This document shows positions 1-23,747 of a stretch of 42,935 nucleotides of DNA, piece by piece. This DNA comes from a virus. Its lineage: Duplodnaviria > Heunggongvirae > Uroviricota > Caudoviricetes. The position numbers and the translations under genes were made by a program. The stretch is taken from IMG/VR virus record IMGVR_UViG_2529292907_000021; one strand, given 5' to 3'. The notes under the pieces are model-generated. The model saw only the letters and a list, made by a program, of their open reading frames with translations, ran no database searches and was not told the origin of the DNA. Each line of letters opens with the position of its first letter. Position 1 is the first letter of the stretch.

Positions 1-732
1 ACGGCGGTCAGAGAAAACTGGCAGTGGAAACCCGCGGTGGCGTACTGCCGCTATGCCGATGATTTTGTCCTCATCGTCAAAGGCACCAAAGCACAGGCGG
101 AAGCCATCAGGGAGGAGTGTCGGGGTGTGCTCGAAGGCAGTCTGAAACTCAGGCTGAACATGGATAAGACTAAAATCACCCATGTTAATGACGGCTTTAT
201 CTTTCTGGGGCACAGGATCATTCGCAAACGCAGTCGTTATGGCGAGATGCGAGTGGTCTCAACGATCCCGCAGGAGAAAGCCAGAAACTTCGCCGCATCG
301 CTGACAGCACTGTTATCAGGCAACTACAGTGAAAGCAAAGTCGATATGGCTGAACAACTCAACCGAAAACTGAAAGGCTGGGCCATGTTCTATCAGTTCG
401 TTGATTTTAAGGCCAAAGTCTTCAGTTATATCGACCGTGTCGTGTTCTGGAAGCTGGCTCACTGGCTGGCCCGCAAATACCGTACAGGTATCGCTTCCCT
501 GATGAGGTGGTGGTGTAAATCACCGAAACCGGGTCAGAGCAAAACGTGGGTTTTATTTGGTAAAACCAATCACGGCAAGCTCAGCGGCGAAATACTGTAC
601 CGGTTGGTGGGGCAAGGCAAGAAGCTGTTCCGCTGGCGGCTACCCGAAGGTAATCCCTATCTGAGGACGGAGACCAGAAACACGTATACATCGCGCTTTA
701 CAGAAGTGGCAATGGCGTTCGCCAGCATTTAA
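1..732 (+). CDS. Group II intron-encoded reverse transcriptase/maturase, C-terminal fragment (5' partial, continues upstream of window)
   Basis: Translation TAVRENWQWKPAVAYCRYADDFVLIV... contains the RT domain YADD motif followed by a basic maturase/DNA-binding-like tail; no stop from base 1 to 732. Confidence 0.8.
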   Translation, partial: TAVRENWQWKPAVAYCRYADDFVLIVKGTKAQAEAIREECRGVLEGSLKLRLNMDKTKITHVNDGFIFLGHRIIRKRSRYGEMRVVSTIPQEKARNFAASLTALLSGNYSESKVDMAEQLNRKLKGWAMFYQFVDFKAKVFSYIDRVVFWKLAHWLARKYRTGIASLMRWWCKSPKPGQSKTWVLFGKTNHGKLSGEILYRLVGQGKKLFRWRLPEGNPYLRTETRNTYTSRFTEVAMAFASI

Positions 733-794: not shown

Positions 795-1295
<501 letters not shown>

Positions 1296-1337
1296 GTTCA
1301 CAGATAAAACACTCTCCAGGAAACCCGGGGCGGTTCA

Positions 1338-1554
1338 CATTGGAAATTGGCGTGGTCACATTCCTGTTTCGCCCTACCCACAACCCAACGATATCAAGTT
1401 GCTCACCCTGCGCAGAGTCCAGATCGAACTTGCGAAGCATGTCAGATGTTACGCCGGAGATGTCAGTGAAAGGTCGGGTTATCAGGTCAATGTGTTGCTG
1501 GAAGAGTGGTTTAGTGACGTGATAGTTCGTTATCAGCTCAGTGTATTTACTCAT
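1338..1554 (-). pseudogene. Phage tail protein (gene following baseplate J, Mu gp48/DUF2313-like position), N-terminal ~72 codons only; truncated by the IS insertion
   Basis: ORF 1102..1554 starts MSKYTELITNYHV... directly after the baseplate J gene with a 4-nt overlap; beyond 1337 the frame runs antisense through the IS, so only the first ~72 residues are phage-derived. Confidence 0.5.
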
Positions 1555-2750
1555 GGCGTTGGCGTTATTTTGATGTTGGCAATATTGGAATGAGCAGCCT
1601 CATTAAATAAGATATCTATATTTGAAGCGGCAACTGTTGCTGCACTCTTACCGATTTTCAGCGAGTTAATATCATAATATTTACTGTCACCACCACTCAT
1701 TACACCAAGGTTGGCTGGAGAATAAATACGGCTTAACAGAACATCATCACCTATGCGCAGTGAATTTATATATTTCGAAATCTCCGCTTTCATTTCCTCG
1801 GCAACTTGTGACGTATAGCCTGGGTAAGTTGCGATGACTATTTCGATAAACGCCTCAACCACCACAGGGCGAGAAAACTTTATCGCTTTTGGCTCGCCAT
1901 ATTTACCCACAAGATTCACTGTGGTAGTGCCGAAGGTCGATGTTCCCTGGTCCTTTTTCTTAGAGATTGCCGTAGCGATAATTGTCGCATCCCCCCCATC
2001 AACAATGCAGCTGATGGAGTGTGCTGGCAGACCATTAGCATCCACGGTATCAGCGTCGTTCTCGTAAATACGTACGCGTGTTACGCCGGGAATATCCAGT
2101 AGCGTACCGTCTAACCCATCAATGGTGGTCATTGATGGTAGTGCAGTACTCCGTGATTGCCTCTGGCGCAACTGTGCGTCATTTTCACCAGGAGAGCCAA
2201 CTGTAGCCGCCAATGGATTTGTTACGGTTTTCCACCCTCTTGTCGGCGTGGCAATCTGTGTGATGGTGTTAGCCATTGCCGCGACAGGACCAGCCGTTCT
2301 ACATGTAGCGGTAACTGTGACCGTACCTGACCCAGGAATATTCACATCAACGGGCAAGTCCCATAATGCCCCATTTGCATCTCGAACTGTACCGGCAGCA
2401 ATTGGCGTTCCAATATCGCCGGAGATAATTACATCAGCGGTTGAGTTCGTCGCAATCTTGCGGGTAATTCCGTTGATTTTAACGTTGCTACCAAGCGCCC
2501 GCCCTATCCCTGTAGCGGGTGAATAGGAGTTATATACCGCAACGGCCGTGTTATTAGCATCGTGAATCCCGAGTGCATACAGCGCTACCATTTGCCCGTC
2601 CTTACTGTCCGGATCGAGATAAGAATCGCTACCGTAGATCTCCTTAAAGTATTCCGTTAGTTTGTCCAGGATAGTCTGATAATCAGGCGCACTGATCCCC
2701 TGGGCCGTTACCGTTGCCGATAACCCCAGCGTGTCGAGGTTCAAAGCCAT
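1551..2750 (-). CDS. Baseplate J-like protein
   Basis: 399-aa protein in a baseplate gene block; size, position and sequence character fit the baseplate J (Mu gp47 / P2 gpJ) family. Confidence 0.65.
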   Translation of the reverse strand: MALNLDTLGLSATVTAQGISAPDYQTILDKLTEYFKEIYGSDSYLDPDSKDGQMVALYALGIHDANNTAVAVYNSYSPATGIGRALGSNVKINGITRKIATNSTADVIISGDIGTPIAAGTVRDANGALWDLPVDVNIPGSGTVTVTATCRTAGPVAAMANTITQIATPTRGWKTVTNPLAATVGSPGENDAQLRQRQSRSTALPSMTTIDGLDGTLLDIPGVTRVRIYENDADTVDANGLPAHSISCIVDGGDATIIATAISKKKDQGTSTFGTTTVNLVGKYGEPKAIKFSRPVVVEAFIEIVIATYPGYTSQVAEEMKAEISKYINSLRIGDDVLLSRIYSPANLGVMSGGDSKYYDINSLKIGKSAATVAASNIDILFNEAAHSNIANIKITPTP

Positions 2751-3104
2751 TTATGCCTCGCTGGTTACTGTGGTTTGTCCGTAAATGGTGTTTATGGTGG
2801 ACGTGAACGTGACGCGGCGAGTTGTTCCGCTGTTGACTGTGTCAAACGACAGAATGGACAACACGCCGGGGGTTGAACTGATGCGGTCTCTTATTGCCAG
2901 GTTGTAAACTTCTGGCCTCTGCTTTCCAAGAACCGACTGGATATAGGGAGTACCTTCCTCCGTATCGAGGAACCACTGGCCCTTCCAGAGTTCAAATCGA
3001 GTCTTAACCGCCTGGGCAACGCACTCTGGAGAGTTAGCCAGGAAAGTGCCATCGCCCTGCCCGAAGGTATAATCACCGTCGCTATCTTCGCGTCTGTATC
3101 GCAT
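2751..3104 (-). CDS. Small baseplate protein (W/gp46-like position)
   Basis: 117-aa ORF immediately upstream of baseplate J, abutting it without a gap; position conserved in Mu-like baseplate clusters. Confidence 0.45.
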   Translation of the reverse strand: MRYRREDSDGDYTFGQGDGTFLANSPECVAQAVKTRFELWKGQWFLDTEEGTPYIQSVLGKQRPEVYNLAIRDRISSTPGVLSILSFDTVNSGTTRRVTFTSTINTIYGQTTVTSEA

Positions 3105-3111
3105 ATGCCCT

Positions 3112-3210
3112 CTACCACCAGCGAACCTGGCCTATGAAATAACCGAGAGCAGCCACAATAGCCACCATCCAGATCATGATGAATTTCCAGCTTGGTAATT
3201 GCTTAATCAT
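3112..3210 (-). CDS. Small hydrophobic protein, 32 aa (MIKQLPSWKFIMIWMVAIVAALGYFIGQVRWW), start chosen at internal ATG with RBS
   Basis: GGAG Shine-Dalgarno 9 nt upstream of the ATG at 3210; single predicted transmembrane helix; sits between spike and W-like genes. The longer ORF (3112..3309) would start inside a terminator hairpin, so the internal start is preferred. Confidence 0.3.
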   Translation of the reverse strand: MIKQLPSWKFIMIWMVAIVAALGYFIGQVRWW

Positions 3211-3287
3211 TAATCGCAACTCCCGTATTAGTTTGCTAAAATCAAGCACTGATTCTCCCTTGCTCTCATCAAGGTGTAGAAAGTAGA

Positions 3288-3330
3288 AAGCCCCGAAGTG
3301 CGTCAACACTCGGGGCTTTGTTTTATCCCG
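3288..3330 (+). terminator. Intrinsic terminator oriented for plus-strand transcription (antisense to the tail operon)
   Basis: Hairpin AAAGCCCCGAAGTGCGTCAACACTCGGGGCTTT followed by TTTGTTTTAT on the plus strand; on the minus strand the stem is followed by a poor T-run. Confidence 0.55.
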
Positions 3331-3393
3331 TTGATGGGAAAATATATGTACGAATCGTTATTTTGAAATTATCTCGCCAGCGGTAATGCGCTG

Positions 3394-4146
3394 TTAACTC
3401 ACACTTCCTGATTTCCCCGTTCCTGGCTGTACGTCGTTATGGGTGTGACTATCATCAATGGTTTTGTTGTTCGATTTCAGCGAACCGAAAAACTCAATGG
3501 CGCCAGTAATTTTCGCTGCGGTTCCGCTAGAAAGACTACCGACCATGCCCCCCATCCACGTTAACAGCCCGCTGATCGTCACCTTCTCCGAGAAGGTAGA
3601 TTCAGGGGAAATCACGTCGAAACCGCCTGGCGCGACCAGTTTGATTTTCTTCGTGTCAGGATTAATTTCGAAGTAGGTACTGCCGTCATCGCTGCGGAAC
3701 TGCGCTGCAGTGGTGCTGATGCCGCTGATTTTGCGCGTCTGAGACTGCGGGCCTACGATGGCGAAGGCATCACTCAGGTCATGCTGGCGCGGGTCTACCG
3801 CCTCCTGTACGCCACCGTTCTGCCACCAGAAATCAATGCAGCGATCGGAGAACACCAGCAGGCACTCATCGCCGGCTTTAACCGGGAAAGTCAGCGTGCA
3901 CCCACCGCCCCGCGGGAATACCACCGGCACATCAGGAAGGATCGGAATGGCCTCGGAGGTAGCCTTACCGTCATCACCTACCTTTTGGCCGTAGATGGCA
4001 GGCTGAACGGTGCAGGTCACTGTTTCGGGGTCGAACGACTGGATGATTCCGGGCATGGCAACGCGCAGGCCGGTGAAAATAGACAGTTTCTGTGCATCAA
4101 ACGTCTGCTGCTCGCTGCCGTCCTGCGCGCGTGGTGATACTGGCAT
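3394..4146 (-). CDS. Baseplate spike / assembly protein V-like
   Basis: 250-aa ORF with AGGAG RBS, between hub-like and W-like genes; N-terminal region resembles gpV/Mu gp45-type spike proteins by eye. Confidence 0.5.
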   Translation of the reverse strand: MPVSPRAQDGSEQQTFDAQKLSIFTGLRVAMPGIIQSFDPETVTCTVQPAIYGQKVGDDGKATSEAIPILPDVPVVFPRGGGCTLTFPVKAGDECLLVFSDRCIDFWWQNGGVQEAVDPRQHDLSDAFAIVGPQSQTRKISGISTTAAQFRSDDGSTYFEINPDTKKIKLVAPGGFDVISPESTFSEKVTISGLLTWMGGMVGSLSSGTAAKITGAIEFFGSLKSNNKTIDDSHTHNDVQPGTGKSGSVS

Positions 4147-4161
4147 GAAGATCTCCTGGCA

Positions 4162-4192
4162 ATAAAAAACCCGCCGGAGCGGGTTTGTTTAA
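4162..4192 (-). terminator. Intrinsic terminator downstream of the moron pair, upstream of the spike gene
   Basis: Minus-strand reading: AAACCCGCTCCGGCGGGTTTTTTATT (stem CCCGC/GCGGG plus T7 run), located between the stop at 4195 and the spike RBS. Confidence 0.6.
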
Positions 4193-4194
4193 AT

Positions 4195-4566
4195 TTATTT
4201 AGCACTTGGTGGCGGAACTATAGTTTCAGCCCAGCAGCGACACTTACCGCCAGGGCAGCATTTTCCCTCACCAGGCAGGCCAGTTTTGGGCGGTCTTTTC
4301 CATCTGAACACTTTCCCATTGTTCTTAGCGCAAGCATTACAACATCCGCTATCCCCTGCAGTATGCCACCGGAACTTAGTTGCCCCGATGTGTTCTGCGC
4401 GAAGCATATTGTATCTCGCATGTTCAGCAACGCTGCGCTTAATTCGGTTAAACTCAAAATTCCTAACAAACTGGTCATCACGTTTCTTTTTGCGGTTTTT
4501 TACAAAGCCACGAACAATCAGAAACAAAACTACGAGGATGACAGCAATTCCTGGCTCCATGGTCAT
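4195..4566 (-). CDS. Small membrane-anchored protein with a Cys-rich domain homologous to the C-terminus of MuF-type head morphogenesis proteins
   Basis: N-terminal hydrophobic helix (IAVILVVLFLIVRGFV) then ...FRWHTAGDSGCCNACAKNNGKVFRWKRPP...GKCCPGGKCRCWAETIVPPP, which aligns by eye with the C-terminus of the head morphogenesis protein at 17293..18045 (...YWWRIEGAGTRDSHYKMRNKFVRWDNPP...GCLPNCKCWPEIQVPPP). Confidence 0.5.
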   Translation of the reverse strand: MTMEPGIAVILVVLFLIVRGFVKNRKKKRDDQFVRNFEFNRIKRSVAEHARYNMLRAEHIGATKFRWHTAGDSGCCNACAKNNGKVFRWKRPPKTGLPGEGKCCPGGKCRCWAETIVPPPSAK

Positions 4567-4919
4567 TCAACCTTCATGCAGTCGTAAGTACCAAAAATAC
4601 GAGGCTCGCTCATGTTTTGGCGTACTGCTTCAGCATTGAGAATTCCTTTCCCATTGCGTTTTATGTAATCGAGGCCATACCGCTGTCCCGTGTTTTCATT
4701 CAGGACGATCCATTGCATTTTTATGTTCTCGTAATCACCCTCTTTTTTGAGAAAAGTTACCTTCTGACCATCAGGCTTAGCGCCGTTTATCCTCGGGTAT
4801 CCGTCATTCTCGGATGAGGTTGAAAACACAAATGGTCCGCACTTCATGTAGTCAGAATTTTCCGCCAGTGAAGCAAAGCTAACCAATGTTAAAGAAGCCA
4901 TCAAAAGTAGTTTTTTCAT
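4563..4919 (-). CDS. Secreted/periplasmic protein with cleavable signal peptide, unknown function
   Basis: N-terminus MKKLLLMASLTLVSFASLA is a classic Sec signal peptide; the gene overlaps both neighbours by 4 nt (translational coupling); visibly AT-rich relative to flanking tail genes. Confidence 0.5.
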   Translation of the reverse strand: MKKLLLMASLTLVSFASLAENSDYMKCGPFVFSTSSENDGYPRINGAKPDGQKVTFLKKEGDYENIKMQWIVLNENTGQRYGLDYIKRNGKGILNAEAVRQNMSEPRIFGTYDCMKVE

Positions 4920-22138: not shown

Positions 22139-22345
22139 TCATTCGCAATTTGACTGCCATGCTTTGTTGTACGCCAGCACATCACGTTTGGTCTGCTTGT
22201 CCATAACGTCAATGTCATGGTCGGTCAGGTAGATGGGCTTAACCCAGTCGCAAGCAGTATCAACGACAACCGGGACGCTTCCACGATTCCCGCAGCTCGC
22301 GATCAACATCGTCATCAGGCATATGGCTAACAGTCTGCTGTACAT
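22139..22345 (-). CDS. Outer-membrane spanin Rz1-like lipoprotein (o-spanin), overlapping the i-spanin gene
   Basis: 68-aa ORF in a different frame overlapping the 3' end of the Rz-like gene; N-terminus MYSRLLAICLMTMLIASC contains a lipobox (IASC). Confidence 0.5.
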   Translation of the reverse strand: MYSRLLAICLMTMLIASCGNRGSVPVVVDTACDWVKPIYLTDHDIDVMDKQTKRDVLAYNKAWQSNCE

Positions 22346-22538
22346 TGCTGGCCTTTTTGGTTACTTCGACGCGGCGTTCTACGGCTGCCTTGGTGGCTGC
22401 GGCATTATCGTCGGTGCGCTGTTTATCTGATTTGGCTTCGGCTTTTTCGCGTCCACGCATGCTGCCCAGGCCAAACGCACCCAGCACAAGCATTACGATC
22501 AATCCGATTGCCGCCAGAATGGCTTTCAGTTTCGTCAT
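22260..22538 (-). CDS. Inner-membrane spanin Rz-like (i-spanin)
   Basis: 92-aa ORF immediately downstream of the endolysin; N-terminal TM helix followed by a charged helical region; overlapped by the lipoprotein ORF. Confidence 0.5.
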   Translation of the reverse strand: MTKLKAILAAIGLIVMLVLGAFGLGSMRGREKAEAKSDKQRTDDNAAATKAAVERRVEVTKKASNVQQTVSHMPDDDVDRELRESWKRPGCR

Positions 22539-23080
22539 AGGCTCACACGCTCCCGTACCCAGCCATACACGAATGACTTGTTAGCCGGGCGCTGCTCTGC
22601 CAGCTCGAGATAGCGCTGCCCTTGGCTGCAATTCAGTGCACGGAGCAATACTGATTCCCCTTCGCTCCCGCGTTTAGCCAGGAACGATTTCAGGGCGCTG
22701 ATGCTACGAGGGCCAATCTGGCCGTCGGCGATTAAGTCTGGGTAAAGTTTCTGCTGGTCGTTGAAGACATTCAGCCAACGCTGGAACCATTTCACCTGCA
22801 CTGATGGCCCCATGTTCACGCCGGTGTCGCAGAGTTCAGCGGCGATGGCCGGAGACACGGTAGCTACCTGGTCGAAGCGTGGACCATACCAGTAATCAGC
22901 CTCGAGTATTTCGAGTGCCTGCTGGCGTGTCAGGTTGCGCATATCACCGGTAAAGCCATGGGCGCGTGCCGTTGCCTGAGTGATTCCCCAGTTCGTCGGG
23001 CCGCCCTTGTCGTTCGGGTGATTAACGTATCCACCCTCTTTGCCGAGGATGCGGTTGAAGATATCGTCTTTGGTCATCAT
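22535..23080 (-). CDS. Endolysin, glycoside hydrolase family 108 with C-terminal peptidoglycan-binding domain
   Basis: N-terminal motif ILGKEGGYVNHPNDKGGPTNWGIT is the GH108 signature; followed by a PG-binding-like domain; located between holin-like and spanin genes. Confidence 0.8.
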   Translation of the reverse strand: MMTKDDIFNRILGKEGGYVNHPNDKGGPTNWGITQATARAHGFTGDMRNLTRQQALEILEADYWYGPRFDQVATVSPAIAAELCDTGVNMGPSVQVKWFQRWLNVFNDQQKLYPDLIADGQIGPRSISALKSFLAKRGSEGESVLLRALNCSQGQRYLELAEQRPANKSFVYGWVRERVSL

Positions 23081-23352
23081 TCAGCCCTTACGACTTTTGC
23101 CAGATTGCCTTTGGCTCGCCACACAGCAATGCAGATAGCCAGGTTGAGGAACAACTCACCCGGGTCAACGTTGCTGTAATGGCCGAGAAGAATACGGAAA
23201 GCGGTGAAGCTTGCCGACAGGATCAGGAAGTAAGCCATCCAGGCATAACCCGGGCGGTGCCTGCGTCCTGTCTTACTGAAGAACATCAGACGAAACACGA
23301 TCGCCATGCAGATAATCGCGTTTGCATCCACGATGACGGAATGCCATGTCAT
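23077..23352 (-). CDS. Holin/antiholin-like small membrane protein
   Basis: 91-aa protein with 2-3 predicted TM helices, translationally coupled between the holin and endolysin genes. Confidence 0.45.
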   Translation of the reverse strand: MTWHSVIVDANAIICMAIVFRLMFFSKTGRRHRPGYAWMAYFLILSASFTAFRILLGHYSNVDPGELFLNLAICIAVWRAKGNLAKVVRAE

Positions 23353-23747
23353 TTCCCTTCCTCCTCCAGCCCGGGCATCTTGCCGTTGCGCGACTTGGCA
23401 ACAACTCGAAGCAGGACTGCGACGGAAACGGAAGCAGCTACAAGCGCACCAACATTCGGTGACACTTCGATACTGACCGGCGGCTGTAACAGGCCAAGGG
23501 CCGTATTAATGACCCCGGCGATAATCTTGGCCATGGGAACGGAGAAGAACACGCCCCCCATGAATGAGATGACCGCGAAGAGCATCTGCTTCCATAGTTG
23601 ATGAGGCTCTGAGGTCAGCACATACATTGCCGCCCCGGCCAGCGCACATAACATTACGCCAGGTGTCGCCTCCGGGAACATAGTGGCGAAAGTGATCCCT
23701 ACCGTAGCGGAGGTCACCCCACTGGCAATTGTGATTGGCTCAGACAT
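23349..23747 (-). CDS. Holin-like membrane protein
   Basis: 132-aa protein with multiple hydrophobic helices and a charged C-terminus; first gene of the lysis cassette. Confidence 0.5.
   Translation of the reverse strand: MSEPITIASGVTSATVGITFATMFPEATPGVMLCALAGAAMYVLTSEPHQLWKQMLFAVISFMGGVFFSVPMAKIIAGVINTALGLLQPPVSIEVSPNVGALVAASVSVAVLLRVVAKSRNGKMPGLEEEGK

Follow-up and report, generated by a model that had tools for sequence, protein, structure and literature searches.

This study concerns a short intergenic region, positions 3105 to 3393 of the window, by which is meant the whole 42,935-nucleotide (nt) stretch of caudoviral DNA in the virus record IMGVR_UViG_2529292907_000021. The region carries a mobile cassette in which a hairpin, a leader and a 45-codon open reading frame (ORF) for a putative membrane peptide travel together as one unit. 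We give about an even chance to the reading that a cis-antisense RNA of ~80 nt controls this small peptide, in an arrangement that would resemble that of type I toxins. The wider description of the cassette, as a type of cis-antisense-gated small membrane peptide packaged as a mobile unit with a two-way terminator in phage late operons, widespread and unannotated, is partly supported by sequence comparison, for which ~190 related loci formed the base. The original prediction for this DNA, made by a model from the letters of the window, had proposed a type I toxin–antitoxin layout. What is recovered across the ~190 loci is a hydrophobic peptide gene with an antisense -10 element inside its 5' end and a terminator ~70 nt further on; the peptide, however, has 45 amino acids (aa), the hairpin is two-way and the gene has no promoter of its own. 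The features of the cassette are these:

3112 to 3249, minus strand: 45-codon ORF MLDFSKLIRELRLMIKQLPSWKFIMIWMVAIVAALGYFIGQVRWW with a GTG start and a TAG stop, recognized by a phrog_6632 match, homologues and coding selection
3112 to 3210, minus strand: internal 32-aa frame from Met14, with an internal Shine–Dalgarno (SD) sequence GGGAG (3224-3220) 9 nt 5' of its ATG
3250 to 3286, minus strand: structured leader, recognized by its fold and by a stem whose pairing persists with other bases in other lineages
3274 to 3326, both strands: two-way terminator-like hairpin, recognized by its stem, folds, conservation and covariation
3234 to 3242, plus strand: candidate extended -10 element TGcTAAAAT (TGCTAAAAT), conserved, overlying ORF codons 6-3
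3214 to 3219, plus strand: weak -35-like TCGCAA, matching at 3/6 positions, with a 17-nt spacer to the -10
about 3249 to 3326, plus strand: predicted cis-antisense RNA of ~75-80 nt, with boundaries placed from the -10 position and the terminator

The ORF is a genuine coding gene, because third-position changes greatly exceed second-position changes in its transmembrane (TM) half (183 and 27, respectively, on a tree of 53 unique ORFs). Selection on the ORF is visible across lineages that share 50-60% protein identity, and distant homologues retain the motifs SK..RE.R.M and LP.W[KR]F, often together with RWW. The start codon is a weak GTG in 32 of 35 unique ORFs, and in the window the SD AGGGAG lies 5 nt 5' of the GTG at 3249. 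The original prediction had called a 32-aa peptide from an ATG and had expected that peptide to be conserved in related phages. Homologues do occur across Enterobacterales phages, and the ATG ORF (3210..3112) with its GGGAG exists, but the conserved gene encodes 45 aa, of which the 32-aa frame is the C-terminal two thirds. In SEN34, Rac-SA53, TL-2011c and SPN3UB, the homologues extend 13 codons beyond that ATG, up to a GTG that follows AAGGGAG or AAGGAG. The 45-aa peptide matches phrog_6632, a family of unknown function, with E = 3e-22 over 45/45 profile positions, and homologues match it with E = 5.5e-29 and 3.9e-23. Pfam offers no family for the peptide even at E<=10, noise aside, NCBIfam has no family match, and the PADLOC defence profiles give none at E<=1. 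Residues 1-22 are amphipathic with a net charge of +3, residues 23-42 are hydrophobic (mean Kyte-Doolittle value of 2.1 in the 19-aa window of residues 24-42), and the C-terminus is RWW. This combination of an amphipathic N-terminal part, one hydrophobic segment and an RWW end suggests a tail-anchored, single-pass inner-membrane peptide.

The hairpin stands ~38 nt 5' of the start codon in essentially all full-length homologues, at a spacing that is fixed in most lineages. In the window, the basal stem pairs AAAGCCCCGA (3287-3296) with TCGGGGCTTT (3310-3319), and an inner GTG/CAC stem (3298-3300 with 3307-3309) closes a 6-nt loop (3301-3306). On the plus strand the stem runs into the tail GTTTTAT (3320-3326); the minus-strand tail, CTACTTTCTACACC (3286-3274), doubles as the anti-SD arm of the leader. 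The folding energy of the core is -19.3 kcal/mol for the minus strand and -18.0 kcal/mol for the plus strand, and both strands also fold in the homologues (-11 to -22 kcal/mol). There are compensatory changes at eight stem pairs in the alignment, and the lineage variants of the stem include GCCCCGA, ACCCCGA, ACCCCGT, GGCCCAGA, AACCCGA and GCTCCGA. In essentially all homologues and in every context, the hairpin stands between an A-tract and a T-tract. Since the A-tract lies 5' and the T-tract 3' of a GC-rich stem, the hairpin looks like a two-way intrinsic terminator, which would imply convergent transcription. It had been described as a terminator for the plus strand; the hairpin and the T-run are indeed there, but not for the plus strand only, given the A-tract and T-tract on opposite sides in homologues. 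A simple terminator scan called it on neither strand because of its bulge and loop. On the antisense strand, the GC-rich basal stem still has 9-10 bp (-11 to -21 kcal/mol) and is followed by a conserved T-rich run; across all contexts, the runs beyond the stem read TTTTCGCTTTTAT, TTTTTACTTTTAT and TTTGTTTTAT.

The leader forms a stem of CCTTG (3274-3270) with CAAGG (3262-3258) around a 7-nt loop, and in the extended fold the U-rich tract pairs with the SD GGGAG (3259-3255). As modelled, this fold would sequester the ribosome-binding site (RBS) of the GTG start. In other lineages, the stem is swapped for TGACT/AGTCA, CCTG/CAGG or CGTTA/TAACG.

The cassette is found well beyond the window. A search in distant mode detected it, whole or in part, in 1386 of 5426 complete E. 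coli genomes, where it is almost always unannotated; megablast against E. coli genomes gave no match. GenBank has it in 62 phage records, among them converting phages for Stx1a, Stx2a and Stx2c, and IMG/VR in ~400 contigs; Citrobacter, Yersinia, Pantoea, Brenneria, Providencia, Serratia and Sodalis are among the hosts. At 50% identity, the peptide family is a small one of 39 clusters in a set of 1.84 billion representative proteins; it spans Enterobacterales as well as metagenomic phages. No match to the peptide sequence or to WP_000459345 came from a full-text literature search, and no description of the cassette was found in the literature on type I toxin–antitoxin systems, Stx prophages, lysis cassettes and antisense RNA.

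The genomic positions of the cassette show its mobility. In ~78 of the 97 first-round loci it lies between the endolysin gene and the Rz spanin gene, with endolysin neighbours of at least five unrelated types (SAR lysozyme, GH19-like, GH108, a 138-aa type and an M15-like peptidase). It occupies the junction of the spike and W genes in this window and in SEN34, and that of bppV and the W-like gene in Rac-SA53. Further sites follow a tail fibre gene, follow the gene for a 1300-aa protein and fall at two capsid-gene junctions of one contig. Its orientation is always co-directional with the flanking late genes. At junctions free of the cassette, as in the window's own endolysin/spanin example, the flanking genes abut with no terminator between them, so the hairpin belongs to the cassette and not to its neighbours. 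In a comparison of TL-2011c with Sakai Sp5, the A-tract 5' of the hairpin is the exact breakpoint.

Some loci carry repeated or recombined forms. Locus L100 (2100-2650) has two tandem cassettes, each after an additional CCGGCC...GGCCGG T-run terminator, and their peptides are divergent, one of 59 aa ending in AAIRWW and the other of 48 aa. On one phage contig (L101), cassettes at 2423-2644 and 4054-4279 sit at different capsid-gene junctions, the second with a paralogous 54-aa peptide, MEQMLKKYSKGFFKM...VIRWW. An nhmmer search for extra cassette heads gave second matches that were mostly the palindromic hairpin on the other strand. At L147 (2094-2340), a cassette head composed of hairpin, leader and five codons (GTG ATT AAT TTT AGC) is joined to an unrelated 59-aa TM ORF, and a 32-aa remnant of the original peptide gene lies ~190 nt downstream of the fusion; the head therefore appears to be exchangeable between small membrane ORFs. 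In many E. coli genomes (matches H51-H60), only window positions 3168-3248, the first 27 codons, were matched, at ~83% identity. This suggests further variants with a common 5' part and another C-terminal half, comparable to the ...FLWVVSQLIIAIKG forms at L012 and L015.

In three independent truncated or rearranged loci (L009, L148 and L145-147), neither hairpin nor leader remains, and 6-13 codons are missing from the start of the ORF. What is left is a frame of 32-37 residues with its internal SD, starting from Met14 or, in the SEN34 type, from Met9. In the Serratia loci L009 and L148, the spike stop codon is joined directly to the peptide remnant. Among the homologues, Met14 and the GAG of codon 10 never vary, and codon 9 retains its GG save in the SEN34 type, where it is ATG (Met9); the internal SD reads (C/A)GG GAG, followed by a spacer to Met14. 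Because the truncated loci keep the Met14 frame and the internal SD, the 32-aa ORF is a plausible second translation product and need not have been a mis-call.

The evidence that bears most directly on an antisense RNA lies within the first codons of the ORF. The antisense strand of codons 6-3 reads TTT GCT AAA ATC, and direct reading bore out the extended -10 sequence TGcTAAAAT that the original prediction had located at 3234-3242 on the plus strand. The pattern TGnTAnnnT is present over codons 3-6 in 67 of 72 unique loci, in the forms TAAAAT, TAATAT or TAAGAT. The residues encoded over the motif vary (DFSK, DISK, NFSK, NLSK, DLSK, HLSR and NFSR). Not one Fitch change fell on the third position of codon 3, 4 or 5; the mean is 6.2 for the remaining degenerate codons and ~3.9 for those inside the slow 5' half, and the first base of codon 4 changed 4 times. 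The wobble bases that never vary are G-14 (AGC, never AGT or TCN), A-11 (TTT, ATT or CTT, never NNC) and A-8 (GAT, AAT or CAT). Synonymous sites frozen while residue changes are tolerated, at the key -10 positions, is the pattern that a putative overlapping promoter is predicted to leave. An AT-rich start region fails to explain the frozen bases, since AGC is kept and is never AGT. A 4-bp mini-hairpin over codons 4-8 proposed by RNAalifold was also considered as the cause and rejected: the third bases of codons 3 and 5 are free in it, and it is absent in L114.

The motif recurs in the variant cassettes as well. The second cassette of L101 has antisense TGCTATACT over Y-S-K codons, the tandem cassettes of L100 have TACAAT and TAAGAT at the same antisense place, and the head fusion at L147 has TAAAAT there. 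In the truncated copies (L009 and L145-148), the hairpin and the antisense motif have been lost together.

The predicted RNA would start ~7 nt beyond the -10 element, near the complement of the GTG. An 81-nt plus-strand RNA folds at -27.9 kcal/mol (z = -3.55 relative to shuffles) into a 5' stem-loop with the anti-SD, an A/G-rich linker GUAGAAAGUAGAAAG and the terminator hairpin with its U tail. Its 7-nt loop and the loop of the mRNA leader are complementary, which may provide a natural first contact.

In the proposed mechanism, a sigma-70 extended -10 promoter in codons 3-6 would fire an RNA of ~75-80 nt from the opposite strand, perfectly complementary to the start codon, the SD and the leader and ending at the cassette's own terminator. 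In a lysogen or early in infection, the terminator would limit read-through from upstream, the leader would hide the SD of the weak GTG start and the antisense RNA would pair with whatever mRNA leaked through, presumably repressing translation. Massive late transcription would then outnumber the antisense RNA, and the peptide would be made along with the lysis or tail genes and would probably act on the inner membrane, where it may be toxic. The position between endolysin and spanin genes and the presence of two starts suggest a membrane effect at lysis, and the occurrence of the cassette in baseplate and capsid clusters as well indicates that the peptide's function is not tied to one neighbour. 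A broader proposal, which we hold tentatively and would sooner doubt than accept, is that there is a hitherto unrecognized superfamily of type-I-toxin-like cassettes in the late operons of Enterobacterales temperate phages, many Shiga-toxin phages with their lysis cassettes among them. In each, besides the two-way terminator and the leader over the SD, an antisense RNA from the prophage would gate a dual-start, tail-anchored RWW peptide that tunes lysis timing, and through it the release of phage and toxin, or that aborts or excludes related superinfecting phages.

A number of observations weigh against antisense control. TGNTAWWAT occurs 5 times in the window, where 3.8 would be expected; at this chance level, the motif in one genome is no evidence alone, and only its conservation gives it meaning. 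A promoter scan flagged no plus-strand promoter here, the -35 TCGCAA matches at only 3/6 positions, and it is not conserved in distant homologues. The whole 5' half of the ORF is slow at synonymous sites, which can be explained in part by the internal SD and start and by structure in the leader or start region, and many of the loci are close relatives of one another. The hairpin itself has at least a sense-strand RNA role, because both its stability and its wobble pairs favour the ORF strand, on which its upper stem is selected. Of the distinct cores, 20/22 are stabler on that strand (by -0.8 to -6.9 kcal/mol), and G.U or U.G pairs stand in the upper stem in 6/21 and 9/21 sequences (alignment columns 29-44 and 31-43), where they would become A.C mismatches on the other strand. 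An Rfam scan, which the original prediction had named as a check, covered 2500-4500 with permissive settings and gave nothing at the gathering score. The best matches, ctRNA_pGA1 (27.9/45 bits) and sar (RF00262; 24.6/43 bits), are both on the ORF strand; the sar match reflects hairpin shape only, being sub-threshold and on that strand. Pfam, PADLOC and Rfam (at the gathering score) thus match no known toxin, defence or RNA family.

The setting of the gene raises a further difficulty. The peptide gene is embedded co-directionally in late operons, has no conserved sense promoter of its own and leaves only ~38 nt from hairpin to start; unlike type I loci, it has no independent toxin promoter, and its stop abuts the next late gene. 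A candidate sense promoter 5' of the hairpin (GGATAACACAAAATC) was rejected as part of the cassette, as this region lies downstream of R and is common to cassette-free Sakai phages. Because the cassette resides mostly in lysis cassettes, a role linked to phage lysis is indicated rather than a classical addiction module.

These points lead to the strongest alternative, which is possible although we consider it rather unlikely: that there is no antisense RNA, and that the ORF is a lysis-accessory or late membrane-peptide gene under sense-strand control only. The hairpin would then attenuate or insulate read-through or stabilize the 5' end of the mRNA, the U-tract and small stem would hide the SD, and the GTG (45 aa) and ATG (32 aa) starts would yield two forms in the manner of holin and antiholin, with the bases of codons 3-12 serving initiation and the internal SD. 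Much of the above fits such a gene, including the preference for the endolysin–Rz junction whatever the endolysin type, the stop that abuts the next gene and the SD sequestered in the sense fold. The same can be said of the sense-strand wobble pairs, which are present both in the terminator and in the leader stem (at L051, a U.G wobble on the ORF strand), of the strong conservation of Met14 and its GGGAG and of the three independent truncations that retain just the 32-37-aa frame. Sense-strand control alone, however, leaves unexplained the frozen AGC and the third bases of codons 3 and 4 amid residue change, the -10-like hexamer at the same antisense place in paralogous peptides and the conserved A-rich tract 5' of the hairpin. 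A strong sense terminator in front of the cassette's own gene and of essential downstream genes is also hard to rationalize without Q antitermination, and a lysis-accessory role does not account for cassettes in baseplate and capsid clusters. Antisense control would cover the frozen bases and the recurring hexamer.

A second alternative accepts the plus-strand RNA but takes it to be mainly trans-acting, like AgvB, AsxR and HnrS, with the overlap of the peptide gene incidental or secondary; we regard this as improbable. Pairing with mRNAs or small RNAs (sRNAs) of host or phage would then involve an anti-SD-like 5' region (UUCUCCCUUG) and the A/G-rich linker. The predicted make-up of the RNA, a stem-loop, a single-stranded A/G-rich GUAGAAAGUAGAAAG and a terminator with a U tail, would suit such a function, HnrS works through a seed complementary to RBSs, and prophage late regions do carry short, convergent, terminator-ended sRNAs bound by Hfq (PMC4104026; PMC13502914). 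Yet the leader and loop sequences diverge by lineage (AUGAGAG, CCGGAAA, AAUAAGG and others), which makes a conserved trans seed unlikely, anti-SD aside. The predicted RNA also never occurs without the adjacent ORF start, and it has no Rfam match. AgvB, AsxR and HnrS (EcOnc01/02/10-12) resemble the predicted cassette RNA in being short, terminator-ended and convergent in lambdoid late regions, but they come from other loci, act in trans and overlap no peptide gene. Identity with HnrS (66 nt, multicopy, in prophage late genes and RBS-targeting) was considered and rejected on two grounds: EcOnc10-12 are located 3' of Rz, where the sequence at EcOnc12 (HnrS) in Sakai Sp9 is unrelated to the cassette, and Sakai Sp5, Sp9 and Sp15 have another insert in place of the cassette.

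The last alternative, that the hairpin is a leftover terminator at a recombination joint, the ORF a decaying remnant and the promoter motif a coincidence of recent common descent, is highly improbable. In its favour, E. coli and Salmonella prophages hold many nearly identical copies, the motif does not exceed chance within one genome and truncated copies occur, but the coding selection at 50-60% identity with its retained motifs (SK..RE.R.M, LP.W[KR]F and RWW), the covarying hairpin stems, the hairpin-to-start spacing fixed in most lineages and a family that spans Enterobacterales and metagenomic phages all speak against decay.

In the three Sakai prophages examined (Sp5, Sp9 and Sp15), the endolysin–Rz junction is occupied by a different insert, and for this reason the Hfq-CRAC list of Sakai sRNAs is uninformative about the cassette. 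The insert consists of an antirepressor gene (ant) and an unrelated 48-aa single-TM ORF, MGWLMISDKLITLVKSLCVLVGISFLVMLVAIFFSTAWRVLTLSGLVG, directly 5' of Rz:

L096, 527-673: 48-aa TM ORF of Sakai Sp9
L097, 2749-2895: 48-aa TM ORF of Sakai Sp15
L098, 6383-6529: 48-aa TM ORF of Sakai Sp5

Homology between this ORF (ECs_5722) and the cassette peptide was ruled out by an hhalign probability of 0.2. As Sakai carries an unrelated ORF at this place, a small TM peptide just before Rz is a recurring theme with nonhomologous solutions.

In the window, the gap that holds the cassette measures 289 bp (3105-3393), not the 84 bp first reported, and it is flanked by two minus-strand baseplate genes. At the homologous place in Salmonella phage SEN34, the annotation runs baseplate spike, hypothetical protein, baseplate wedge. 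The features around the gap are as follows:

2751 to 3104, minus strand: W-like gene, followed by a Baseplate_J gene
3368 to 3397, minus strand: promoter-like site TTAACA-18-GATAAT with 10/12 matches in the promoter scan, overlapping the end of the spike gene and directed at the hairpin and peptide gene
3394 to 4146, minus strand: gp138-type baseplate spike gene (PF18352, E = 8e-43)
4195 to 4566, minus strand: 123-aa protein with an N-terminal TM segment and a Cys-rich Mu-F-like domain
4563 to 4919, minus strand: 118-aa protein with a hydrophobic, signal-peptide-like N-terminus

The TTAACA-18-GATAAT site is confined to the window's context and lies outside the mobile cassette, and the sequence 5' of the hairpin differs between contexts. 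A perfect two-way terminator-like hairpin, AAACCCGCCGGAGCGGGTTT, lies at 4167-4186, just 5' of the spike gene, and the 123-aa and 118-aa ORFs are two additional minus-strand genes between the baseplate hub and the spike. Positions 4167-4919 of the window are a second insertion hot spot of the same baseplate operon. Fragments of two mobile elements are also present, one from the reverse transcriptase/maturase of a group II intron (37..732; GIIM and RVT_1 domains) and, after it, one from the core of an IS3-type transposase (849..1295; rve domain). Both fragments (37-1295) abut and overlap the minus-strand ORF 1102..1554, the neighbour of the Baseplate_J gene, and the tail-fibre end of the prophage thus appears to have been disrupted by mobile elements.

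The window's lysis cassette (22139-23747) comprises a 132-aa holin-like gene, a gene for a 91-aa membrane protein, a GH108 endolysin and i- and o-spanins. Its endolysin and spanin genes overlap, with neither a terminator nor a copy of the mobile cassette. The related phages L051, L015 and L085 do carry the cassette in the lysis cluster, indicating that it has moved between lysis and baseplate clusters inside one phage group.

The distribution of the cassette gives these questions some reach, as about one complete E. coli genome in four has it, whole or in part, and so do Stx1a, Stx2a and Stx2c phages. If antisense control holds, an RNA-gated small membrane peptide has been added to the lysis cassette of Shiga-toxin phages, and whether the peptide sets the timing of lysis, and hence toxin release, becomes a testable question. 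The cassette would also represent a type-I-like module without a toxin promoter of its own, one that relies on phage late transcription. A promoter embedded in codons would in that case be recognizable from frozen wobble bases under changing amino acids.

Among known systems, the small type I toxins resemble the cassette peptide. They have fewer than 60 aa, one TM segment, a bulky or charged C-terminus and tandem copies (PMC2887945). The cassette peptide shares its length of <60 aa, its single putative TM helix and its bulky or charged C-terminus with the toxins of Hok/Sok, Ldr/Rdl, Ibs/Sib, TisB/IstR-1 and ZorO/OrzO (PMC2887945, PMC3919570). A hidden SD and tandem copies are likewise held in common, as is an RNA complementary to the 5' region, which is predicted here. 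The peptide has no sequence similarity to Hok/Gef, Ldr, Ibs, TisB or Fst in Pfam, and the terminator of the putative antisense RNA is a two-way hairpin 5' of the peptide ORF, unlike the arrangement at type I loci.

Phage genes of other kinds share parts of the cassette's organization. Morons such as HK97 gp15, a small inner-membrane exclusion protein encoded between tail genes, classically carry a promoter upstream and a terminator downstream. Like a moron, the cassette is an extra, mobile small membrane-protein gene between late structural genes; unlike one, it has its terminator upstream, and its sole promoter-like signal is opposite in direction (for the moron concept, see PMC4104026). The cassette also recalls small lysis-cassette membrane genes with two in-frame starts, each with its SD, both of which are conserved here. 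Holin and antiholin, membrane proteins that oppose each other in lysis timing, are encoded by dual-start genes in lambda (S105/S107) and phage 21 (S68/S71), in which the longer form has extra charged N-terminal residues, as the 45-aa form would here, and P2 lysA, like the cassette, lies between the endolysin and the spanins. The cassette differs from holin/antiholin genes in its single tail-anchored TM segment, which would be atypical, in its 13-residue extension, in its place after the endolysin and its additional occurrence in baseplate and capsid clusters, and in the lack of homology.

Two cis-antisense systems can be set beside the predicted RNA. In P22, the sar RNA of ~70 nt covers the RBS of ant and ends in a hairpin terminator; the predicted RNA would likewise cover a co-located RBS, with a target that differs from the antirepressor. 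In the type I toxin–antitoxin pair SymE/SymR of E. coli, the cis-antisense RNA SymR (~77 nt) is transcribed from a promoter within the 5' part of the toxin ORF and covers the start codon and SD of symE; SymE is a 113-aa soluble AbrB-fold protein expressed from its own SOS promoter. The cassette differs in that its RNA is predicted and its product is a 45-aa putative membrane peptide in a late operon with no promoter of its own. The antisense start just inside the ORF would be alike in both, and by this analogy the architecture of the cassette appears closest to that of SymR/SymE.

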